The notes: generated by a model not told the origin, from the sequence alone. 64,000 bases of DNA from Gammaproteobacteria bacterium (GCA_035943935.1 DASZBR010000002.1:25959-89958), one strand, 5' to 3'. Shown: positions 60,751-61,331, counted from the first letter of the stretch. Numbers and translations are program-made.

Positions 60751-61331
60751 CAATGTTCTTTGTACAAATCGGGCATAGGCCCCCCCGCACACTGTCATCC
60801 TGAGGAGCGTCTTTTCGCGACGAAGGACCTGCTTCTTCTGTTACACCATAGTTCTTCATGCAAACTTCTCGACAATGGATTTAATGTTTTGATTTTATTA
60901 TTATTTGTAAGATCTGCTTTGTCCGCTAATAATTATGAGGAGCCATTTTATGAGTAAAACCTATTTTATCTATATGCTAACCAACATAAAAAACACTGTG
61001 CTTTATACAGGCGTAACAAACGATATAATTCGACGCGTCTACGAACACAAAAATAAACTTCAAAAAGGATTTACTTCAAAATATTATGTAAATAAGTTGA
61101 TGTATTACGAAATGTATTCTGATGTTTCAGGGGCGATTGCAAGAGAAAAACAAATTAAGGGTTGGACGAGAAAAAAGAAGGATAATTTAATTAAAACGTT
61201 AAATCCATTGCTGAGAGATTTGTATGAAGAAATATGTTGAAACAGAAGAAGCAGGTCCTTCGTCGCGAAAAGACGCTCCTCAGGATGACAGTGTGGGGGG
61301 AACCTATGCCAGGTTTGTACAAAGAATGTTG
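60751..61331 (+). mobile_element. compact GIY-YIG cassette bounded by 92-bp inverted repeats (putative small mobile element)
   Basis: IR-L 60751-60842 and IR-R 61241-61331 are reverse complements; the inner 57 bp are identical and the outer ~35 bp differ at ~6 positions. The termini carry the short palindrome TTCTTTGTACAAA. The cassette interior is a 107-bp leader with RBS, then the GIY-YIG ORF. Confidence 0.55.
60950..61240 (+). CDS. small GIY-YIG nuclease-family protein (YhbQ/UPF0213-like), 96 aa
   Basis: YFIYMLTNIKNTVLYTGVTNDIIRRVYEH (GIY...YxG motif) and conserved R/E/N downstream; RBS GAGGAG 6 nt upstream; the ORF stop is immediately followed by IR-R. Confidence 0.75.
   Translation: MSKTYFIYMLTNIKNTVLYTGVTNDIIRRVYEHKNKLQKGFTSKYYVNKLMYYEMYSDVSGAIAREKQIKGWTRKKKDNLIKTLNPLLRDLYEEIC

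Follow-up and report, generated by a model that had tools for sequence, protein, structure and literature searches.

A stretch of 64,000 nucleotides (nt) from a gammaproteobacterial genome (GCA_035943935.1 DASZBR010000002.1:25959-89958; the whole stretch is referred to here as the window) carries a compact cassette in which ssn, a gene for a small GIY-YIG nuclease, is enclosed by inverted copies of a hairpin repeat of the type called Ssn-related motif (SRM). We conclude that this cassette is real and is a new example of the Ssn/SRM system described in 2025, not a new kind of element, and that the gene and its cognate repeats probably operate by the mechanism found in Neisseria. The original prediction had not recognised the architecture as that of a known IS, MITE or homing-endonuclease family; it corresponds to the SRM-ssn-SRM module that Chenal et al. 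described in 2025 (Nat Commun 16:2388, PMC11893778) for the Ssn family, whose members studied so far are site-specific endonucleases of single-stranded DNA.

In that work, the Neisseria meningitidis protein SsnA, which consists of 94 amino acids (aa) with a single GIY-YIG domain (CDD cd10448), was reported to bind the hairpin repeat NTS, CGTCATTCCCGCGMAVGCGGGAATCYRG, as single-stranded DNA (ssDNA) only and to cut a few nt upstream of it; RNA was not bound (PMC11893778). Two parts of the motif proved critical, the GTC trinucleotide that precedes the palindrome and the C that follows the stem; cleavage was abolished by the substitutions Y6A, Y17A and E64A, and in vivo the enzyme restricted transforming ssDNA that carried NTS. 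Homologues of three other species cut beside their own motifs, and across bacteria an SRM was found near 71% of homologues and on both sides in 42%, a gene counting as flanked if each of its sides had one or more SRMs within 500 bp. The discussion of the same paper likened NTS-ssnA-NTS to an insertion sequence and compared it with REP/RAYT (PMC11893778). Our literature searches returned no follow-up paper for SsnA together with GIY-YIG, and no paper joining GIY-YIG with 'repetitive extragenic palindromic' (REP).

The protein carries the first part of this assignment. The predicted 96-aa GIY-YIG open reading frame (ORF) and its ribosome-binding site were confirmed at 60950-61240 and 60937-60942 (GAGGAG), respectively, and Pfam family PF01541 covers residues 5-77 (E 9e-17) as the sole domain. 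Homology to SsnA was judged by proxy on the N. gonorrhoeae orthologue (L082:3016-3297), not on the N. meningitidis protein, and the gonococcal reference consisted of chromosome records in a plasmid collection (two gonococcal chromosomes). This gonococcal ORF encodes 94 aa, has Y6, Y17 and E64, and is located among NTS copies. It is the single place in N. gonorrhoeae found by a tblastn search of 7.3 Gb with the window protein (E 1e-17), and the two proteins are 42% identical over 90 of the 96 residues (E 2e-27). By way of this orthologue, the window protein falls within the published definition of a homologue, a blastp match with E < 1e-10 over at least 75% of the query (PMC11893778). Its residues Y8, Y19 and E66, the predicted catalytic ones, correspond in the alignment to Y6, Y17 and E64 of SsnA, and these positions are invariant in 33 homologues (alignment A1). 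More than 8000 database proteins match the window protein, from Legionella, Thermodesulfovibrio, Patescibacteria and many others, with identities of 58-90% among the best 120 of these matches.

Two other families of GIY-YIG proteins were compared. The protein had originally been called YhbQ-like, and like UPF0213/YhbQ proteins (BH0048, 1ZG2) it is a stand-alone GIY-YIG domain of about 100 aa. This label proved imprecise, as its match to the UPF0213 structure 1ZG2 (B. halodurans BH0048) is marginal (E 0.007, 19.9 bits) against the E value of 2e-27 for gonococcal SsnA. To our knowledge, no associated hairpin repeats have been described for UPF0213 proteins. Judged by these matches, the window protein appears to be Ssn-like rather than a UPF0213 member. 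With the homing endonucleases I-TevI and I-BmoI it shares the GIY-YIG catalytic domain and a selfish-element flavour; unlike them (about 250 aa, a C-terminal DNA-binding domain, cleavage of double-stranded DNA, location in introns or phage intergenic regions), it has 96 aa and no extra domain. NCBIfam offered no specific model, its sole match being TIGR01453 below threshold (20.4 bits against a cut-off of 56). With that score, the small size of the protein and the chromosomal intergenic site, a GIY-YIG homing endonuclease was rejected. There was also a weak PHROG match (E 5e-4).

The second part of the assignment rests on the repeats. As predicted, the cassette occupies the spacer between two convergent genes, an effector-like gene of 1726 aa and rlmJ, as established from ORF coordinates and Pfam annotation of the 64-kb window. 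Its parts, and the related solo repeat elsewhere in the window, are as follows.

60745-60792, no strand assigned: outer segment of the left arm, TAGGGGCAATGTTCTTTGTACAAATCGGGCATAGGCCCCCCCGCACAC, inverted partner of 61291-61337 (pair I2, alignment A2).
60793-60842, + strand: left SRM, an exact inverted copy of 61241-61290 and homologous to the left SRMs of contigs L001 and L084; it reads GTC, stem ATCCT, [GA] G [GA] GCG, loop TCTTTT, CGC [GA] C [GA], stem' AGGAC, C, tail CTGCTTCTTCTGTT.
60843-60901, - strand: inverted relic of the ssn 3' end, partner in the inverted repeat of ORF codons 61182-61240 (pair I1, alignment A2, translations).
60906-60922, + strand: probable remnant of the original left SRM (3' half and tail), gtAAGATCTGCTTtgtcc, suggested by MAFFT alignment A3.
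60905-60942, + strand: leader; a consensus scan places a promoter-like site in it at 60905-60933 (TTGTAA, 17 nt, AATAAT), and the ribosome-binding site GAGGAG follows at 60937-60942.
60950-61240, + strand: ssn gene, 96 aa, assigned by PF01541 and Ssn homology.
61241-61290, - strand: right SRM, beginning immediately past the ssn stop codon and homologous to the right SRMs of L001 and L084.
61291-61337, no strand assigned: outer segment of the right arm, terminating on the rlmJ stop codon (61335-61337).
50839-50877, + strand: solo SRM, reading GTC, ATCCT, GA GC GTA GC GA, AGGAT, C, tail TGCTTCTTCTTTTG, with no nuclease gene nearby.

The inverted repeats, first described as 92 bp long, are genuine but longer than proposed. 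Aligned against the reverse complement of one another (A2), the arms are continuous over about 157 nt, 60745-60901 and 61182-61337, and their perfect core spans 55 nt (60788-60842 and 61241-61295), not 57. The repeat search returned them as two adjoining pairs, I1 (60783-60901 and 61182-61300; 119 nt, 89%) and I2 (60745-60786 and 61296-61337; 42 nt, 83%). The window contains exactly two copies of a 39-nt core, GTCATCCTGAGGAGCGTCTTTTCGCGACGAAGGACCTGC, at 60794-60832 (+) and 61251-61289 (-); none turned up in 100 shuffles. The flanking inverted repeat has a local-alignment score of 174, the highest among the 83 loci compared below, against a 99th-percentile score of 26 for 412 control positions. 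The right repeat had been said to abut the stop codon of the gene; the SRM does start there, but the arm also includes the last 19 codons of the ORF (its inner 59 nt or so). Both arms conform to the verbal design of SRMs, inverted hairpins of 20-50 nt composed of GTC, stem, loop, stem' and C, with structural-pattern matches at 60794-60829 (+) and 61254-61289 (-). The shorter family member that had been noticed near 50836-50890 was identified as a solo SRM, whose repeat GTCATCCTGAGCGTAGCGAAGGATC at 50839-50863 is the sole perfect-stem match in the window (shuffle mean 0.27). The CCTGAG of this SRM supplies the stop codon of the ORF at 50285-50848. Overlap of an SRM with the 3' end of an upstream ORF was also seen in L001, where a 99-aa ORF (L001:669-968) ends within the left SRM.

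The association of gene and repeat extends far beyond the window. We took 80 homologue loci from more than 15 phyla, using species-representative genomes; across these phyla the proteins are 52-68% identical. The set of 83 loci comprised the window, homologue loci of many phyla and the gonococcal reference. The flanking inverted repeat exceeded the 99th percentile of the controls in 59 of the 83 loci. In nearly all fetched loci, the arrangement GTC, 5-nt stem, GA(G), variable interior, (G)A(A), stem', C was found just upstream of the start codon, and its reverse complement directly after the ssn stop codon, often overlapping it. A strict pattern, GTC-stem-GA...A-stem'-C, matched 330 times in 1.16 Mb as against 4 times in shuffled sequence, and 189 of these matches lay within 300 nt of the gene. 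Motif density in this interval was about 30 times that of more distant sequence and about 1000 times the shuffled level. The orientation of the motifs was biased as well, with 61 forward versus 30 upstream of the gene and 65 reverse versus 33 downstream of it. As the original prediction held, the repeat and the nuclease belong together. In Aeromonas and Novosphingobium, homologues (42% and 35% identity) are likewise enclosed by convergent SRMs, there of the simple-stem kind. In metagenomes, the window-type motif was found without an ssn gene nearby at 116 of 120 loci. At the gonococcal locus (L082:2100-3640), the first NTS-like copy past the stop codon is forward, not reverse, and NTS orientation alternates around the gene; the strictly convergent layout of the window's clade is therefore not universal.

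The sequences of the motifs also point to a hairpin of a distinct class. Its stem is supported by covariation: 367 of 632 5' halves were followed downstream by their own complement and then C, compared with a mean of 11.6 when stems were permuted between matches, and the halves covary over at least seven stem types, including ATTGC, ATTCT, ATCCT, ATTTC, ATCCC and ATTCC. Peeling of the interior from the outside in revealed a GA/GA tandem followed by one to three Watson-Crick pairs, and sometimes a second GA/GA step with further pairs. A GNA triloop closes the interior in 128 of the 330 motifs, and the commonest interiors are of the form GAGCG(C/T/A)AGCGA. Interior lengths over the 330 motifs (L002-L084) peak at 11-12, 17-18 and 23 nt, a 6-nt periodicity consistent with stacked modules of 3+3 nt ('[GA] + base pair'). 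Peeled in the same manner, the solo SRM gives '[GA]==' with a GTA triloop, and both arms give '[GA]=[GA]===' with the loop TCTTTT. A test for an upper stem was weakly positive, with a longest run of 3.7 bp versus 3.0 bp in shuffled sequence. Unlike the Neisseria NTS, which is a simple palindrome of 7-8 bp, the window hairpin combines a 5-bp stem with a short GC stem and with tandem G·A modules, of which there are one or two, and its stem ATCCT/AGGA(C/T) departs from published SRMs.

Together, these features resemble the Ssn/SRM system in the single-domain GIY-YIG protein of about 95 aa with Tyr/Tyr/Glu at equal spacing, in the GTC-hairpin-C design of the repeats, in the bracketing of the gene, in the many solo repeats elsewhere, seen here at metagenome loci, and in the occurrence of the family in intracellular or symbiotic lineages. 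The sequences themselves show the anatomy, the homology, the covariation of the stems, the relic and the association of gene and repeat across the family. By analogy with SsnA, we infer ssDNA cleavage, the cut position and the biological role of the window protein. Specifically, the two SRMs bracket ssn in inverted orientation, so that GTC-hairpin-C is read on the + strand at the left and on the - strand at the right, and the protein would bind the folded SRM only in ssDNA, such as that present during transformation, replication or conjugation. It would be expected to cut a few nt 5' of GTC, which places the two predicted cuts just outside the SRMs and on opposite strands. Other SRM copies, for example the solo copy at 50839, may be further targets.

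Several observations weigh against this reading. The window protein is only about 42% identical to any biochemically tested enzyme, and the role in restriction of transforming ssDNA has been established for Neisseria alone (PMC11893778). The single solo SRM in 64 kb means that a large set of host targets is not borne out within the window. The published SRM pattern, HGTCWYN(0-2)YYVSBRHN(0-5)WNVSBRGN(0-2)RNCYNB, did not match anywhere in the window or in the flanks of the 81 homologue loci scanned, although it does work on the 6.3-kb gonococcal locus, where it finds 9 sites. Finally, nearest-neighbour folding of the window arms as ssDNA yielded no stable hairpin (z +0.6 to +1.0, versus -2.7 for NTS). 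The mini-hairpin d(GCGNAGC) is extraordinarily stable in DNA, and tandem G·A pairs of the sheared type are favoured in the context 5'-PyGAPu-3'. The nearest-neighbour model would be expected to under-score sheared G·A pairs and GNA triloops of this kind, and in view of the low scores of the arms the case for the hairpin was rested on covariation and modular peeling instead. A hairpin built of tandem G·A pairs and GNA triloops would also suit an element that is read as ssDNA. A literature search with the literal motif strings returned only primers and other unrelated sequences.

The length of the arms sets the window apart from its closest relatives and from the published precedent, since the left repeat lies within an inverted duplication of 157 nt, in which a relic of the ssn 3' end is also present. 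Two Logan contigs, L001 and L084, encode proteins 90% and 88% identical to the window protein in compact cassettes of about 423 nt, placed in unrelated contexts and ordered as SRM, leader of about 29 nt, ssn and reverse SRM. The arms of these relatives are about 50 nt long, against about 157 nt in the window. Homology between the window and both contigs ends at GTCAT/ATGAC boundaries, and homology to their leaders begins at 60924/60927. On the - strand, 60843-60901 translates to ...NKIKTLNPLSRSLHEELWC with the stop codon lost, where the real C-terminus is ...DNLIKTLNPLLRDLYEEIC; compared over the end of the ORF, the relic reads IKTLNPLSRSLHEELWC against IKTLNPLLRDLYEEIC. This segment is an inverted, decayed copy of the ssn 3' end. 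Just upstream of the leader, gtAAGATCTGCTTtgtcc aligns with GAAGGACCTGCTTCTTC of the left SRMs of L001 and L084 (A3), which suggests that the junction of the inverted segment falls within the original left SRM. The outer segments of about 47 nt are absent from L001, L084 and every fetched locus; the 45-nt sequence searched has no further copy in the window, no match in JGI metagenomes, and is absent downstream of rlmJ in relatives. By these comparisons, the outer segment does not belong to the conserved cassette of close relatives.

The left arm therefore duplicates part of the cassette's right end in inverted form, namely the ssn 3' end, the SRM and about 47 nt beyond, and this accounts for the unusual arm length. 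As an alternative, the left arm could be the remnant of a second, head-to-head copy of the cassette. The original prediction had offered a giant hairpin with the gene in its loop. Such a structure is physically possible, the 603-nt region folding as ssDNA into one long hairpin (-163 kcal/mol, z -22.6), but it is better seen as a by-product of the partial inverted duplication.

A further claim, compatible with the assignment to Ssn/SRM and added to it rather than exclusive of it, is that the module moves. SRM-ssn-SRM would then be an autonomous minimal mobile element in which the GIY-YIG protein nicks extruded terminal hairpins and so drives excision, copying or homing of the whole, and the solo SRMs would be its non-autonomous derivatives or footprints, as in RAYT/REPIN and IS200/IS605. 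A chance REP insertion does not describe the cassette, and to call it a transposon would go beyond the evidence; a minimal mobile element is plausible, and we consider autonomous mobility of this sort doubtful. In its favour, the three close copies encode proteins 88-100% identical in three unrelated contexts, with homology ending at GTCAT/ATGAC, and neighbouring accessions (HEV2613337, HEV2614478 and HEV2614663) suggest that the source metagenome-assembled genome has three paralogues on three contigs. The level of protein identity across more than 15 phyla, the clustering of SRM arrays around the gene and the absence of the cassette from the rlmJ loci of relatives also count for mobility. From the inverted relic it follows that the locus underwent one or more local duplications, and contig L084 breaks inside an SRM (the left one, L084:1-39), which is typical of assembly breaks at multi-copy repeats. 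The same idea was raised in the discussion of Chenal et al. 2025 (PMC11893778).

Against mobility, no target-site duplication was seen outside 60745/61337 or outside the SRMs of L001 and L084, and the paralogues have diverged by about 10%, unlike the near-identical copies of active insertion sequences. GIY-YIG enzymes are hydrolytic, and we know of no strand-transfer activity among them, which also speaks against the idea. The module does share with REP/BIME-RAYT and IS200/IS605 a small nuclease gene flanked by short hairpin repeats that are also dispersed in the genome, along with recognition of hairpins in ssDNA, clustered repeat arrays and a proposed scenario of transposase domestication. 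It differs from them in encoding a GIY-YIG hydrolase, where RAYT and IS200/IS605 encode HUH Y1 transposases that act through a covalent intermediate, and in having SRMs that would be cleaved on opposite strands, where the ends of IS200/IS605 are recognised on the same strand; transposition activity is not known for the ssn/SRM module. On these two differences, membership of IS200/IS605 or RAYT-REP was rejected. A classical insertion sequence was likewise rejected, with no target-site duplication and, as the only ORF product, a GIY-YIG hydrolase domain and no transposase of DDE, HUH, serine or tyrosine recombinase type. The same type of SRM is overwhelmingly solo, as the metagenome loci show, and the only demonstrated function of the system is restriction of ssDNA at the level of the host (PMC11893778).

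The rlmJ locus itself was compared in four related genomes, in which RlmJ is 86-89% identical and the order amidase, Na/H exchanger and rlmJ is shared; none has ssn downstream of rlmJ. These relatives thus lack the cassette, and their downstream regions are wholly different, so that an empty site with matching flanks, which had been suggested as a check, was not found among them, a point against mobility. It had also been proposed that a chance origin would be indicated by repeats that mostly occur without the nuclease, together with an unflanked copy of the gene at this locus in related strains; the repeats are indeed mostly without the nuclease, but in the relatives the gene is absent altogether. 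The gene convergent with rlmJ is entirely different from one relative to the next, and yet others occur elsewhere: in the window it encodes 1726 aa with no Pfam match (55539-60719), in L206 more than 1574 aa with ankyrin repeats (L206:4745-8678), and in L207 it occupies 1312-2139. By this comparison, the site downstream of rlmJ is a variable, effector-like slot in this uncultured gammaproteobacterial lineage. Elsewhere in the family, two cassettes have on either side a directly repeated copy of the end (3') of the host gene upstream, of 79 nt at about 87% identity in L013 (2815-2893 versus 3337-3415) and of 27 nt in L081 (9076-9102 versus 9505-9531). In these cases the insertion seemingly copied, or brought with it, a replacement gene end, and the duplication may be a scar of the route of integration.

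Pairing of the arms at the RNA level is very unlikely as an explanation of the repeats. In that case the arms would pair in a read-through transcript, either controlling ssn expression or terminating the two convergent genes, which would be consistent with the long hairpin formed by the 603-nt region and with the cassette filling a convergent intergenic spacer. However, both the conserved leader and the promoter-like site are located inward of the left-arm boundary, and the gene's own mRNA would consequently lack that arm; the promoter-like site has 9 of 12 consensus matches, which does not in itself indicate function. The upstream gene has a terminator-like hairpin of its own, the arms are only about 50 nt in close relatives, the extra length is accounted for by the pseudogene relic, and a scan of the whole window at Rfam gathering thresholds gave no match. 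SsnA, moreover, is without RNA binding (PMC11893778). The terminator-like hairpin, TGCCCATAGGGGCA followed by a T-rich tail, lies at 60739-60752 after the 1726-aa gene and overlaps the outermost end of the left arm. A reading of CUGAGGAG...CGAAGG as a hammerhead or k-turn RNA was rejected, there being no three-way junction, no Rfam match and no interaction of SsnA with RNA. The remaining alternative, that generic REP-like repeats happen to lie on both sides of an ordinary housekeeping yhbQ-like gene, gains something from how common solo copies are (the 116 metagenome loci and the one in the window), but it is extremely improbable and effectively refuted by the motif density near the gene and its consistent orientation bias and by the flanking inverted repeats of the 59 loci; the lack of conservation of the gene at this locus in relatives and the apparently Ssn-like, not UPF0213, character of the protein also speak against it.

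Read as an ssn gene with its cognate SRMs, the locus adds one Ssn/SRM pair to a family published in 2025. The cross-phylum clade to which it belongs uses, at all 81 loci scanned, a class of hairpin that the published pattern does not detect; the reported 42% of homologues flanked on both sides is therefore probably an underestimate, and the catalogue of enzyme-site pairs for ssDNA tools can be widened. Tandem G·A pairs and GNA triloops stabilise DNA specifically, in keeping with recognition of ssDNA. Beyond the 2025 paper, the present data provide the hairpin variant, the inverted relic, three close copies in different contexts and relatives free of the gene at this locus. The relic, the diverged paralogues and the cassette-free orthologous loci bear on present or past mobility of the module. 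If it is mobile, the relic in the window and the duplicated gene ends of L013 and L081 would be scars of mobilisation. The strongest form of this idea, in which SRM-ssn-SRM is an autonomous element of a new mechanistic class, a 96-aa ssDNA nickase that mobilises itself and solo hairpins across phyla through nicks on opposite strands, is unlikely.

Some minor observations concern the sequence collections and genomic neighbourhoods. Several PLSDB records (NZ_CP119140.1, NZ_CP119142.1, NZ_AP026896.1 and CP090106.1) are of chromosome size and seem to be mislabelled chromosomes; the chromosome-sized records include N. gonorrhoeae at 2.17 Mb, A. caviae at 4.9 Mb and S. meliloti 'pSymB' at 3.7 Mb. 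PADLOC gave no meaningful match to a defence system. On Planktothrix agardhii plasmid p1 (L083, NZ_LR882964.1:18847-19131), a 64%-identical ssn homologue occurs with SRM arrays, and its neighbours are an MmeI-type restriction-modification gene and DISARM drmA, a defence-island context.

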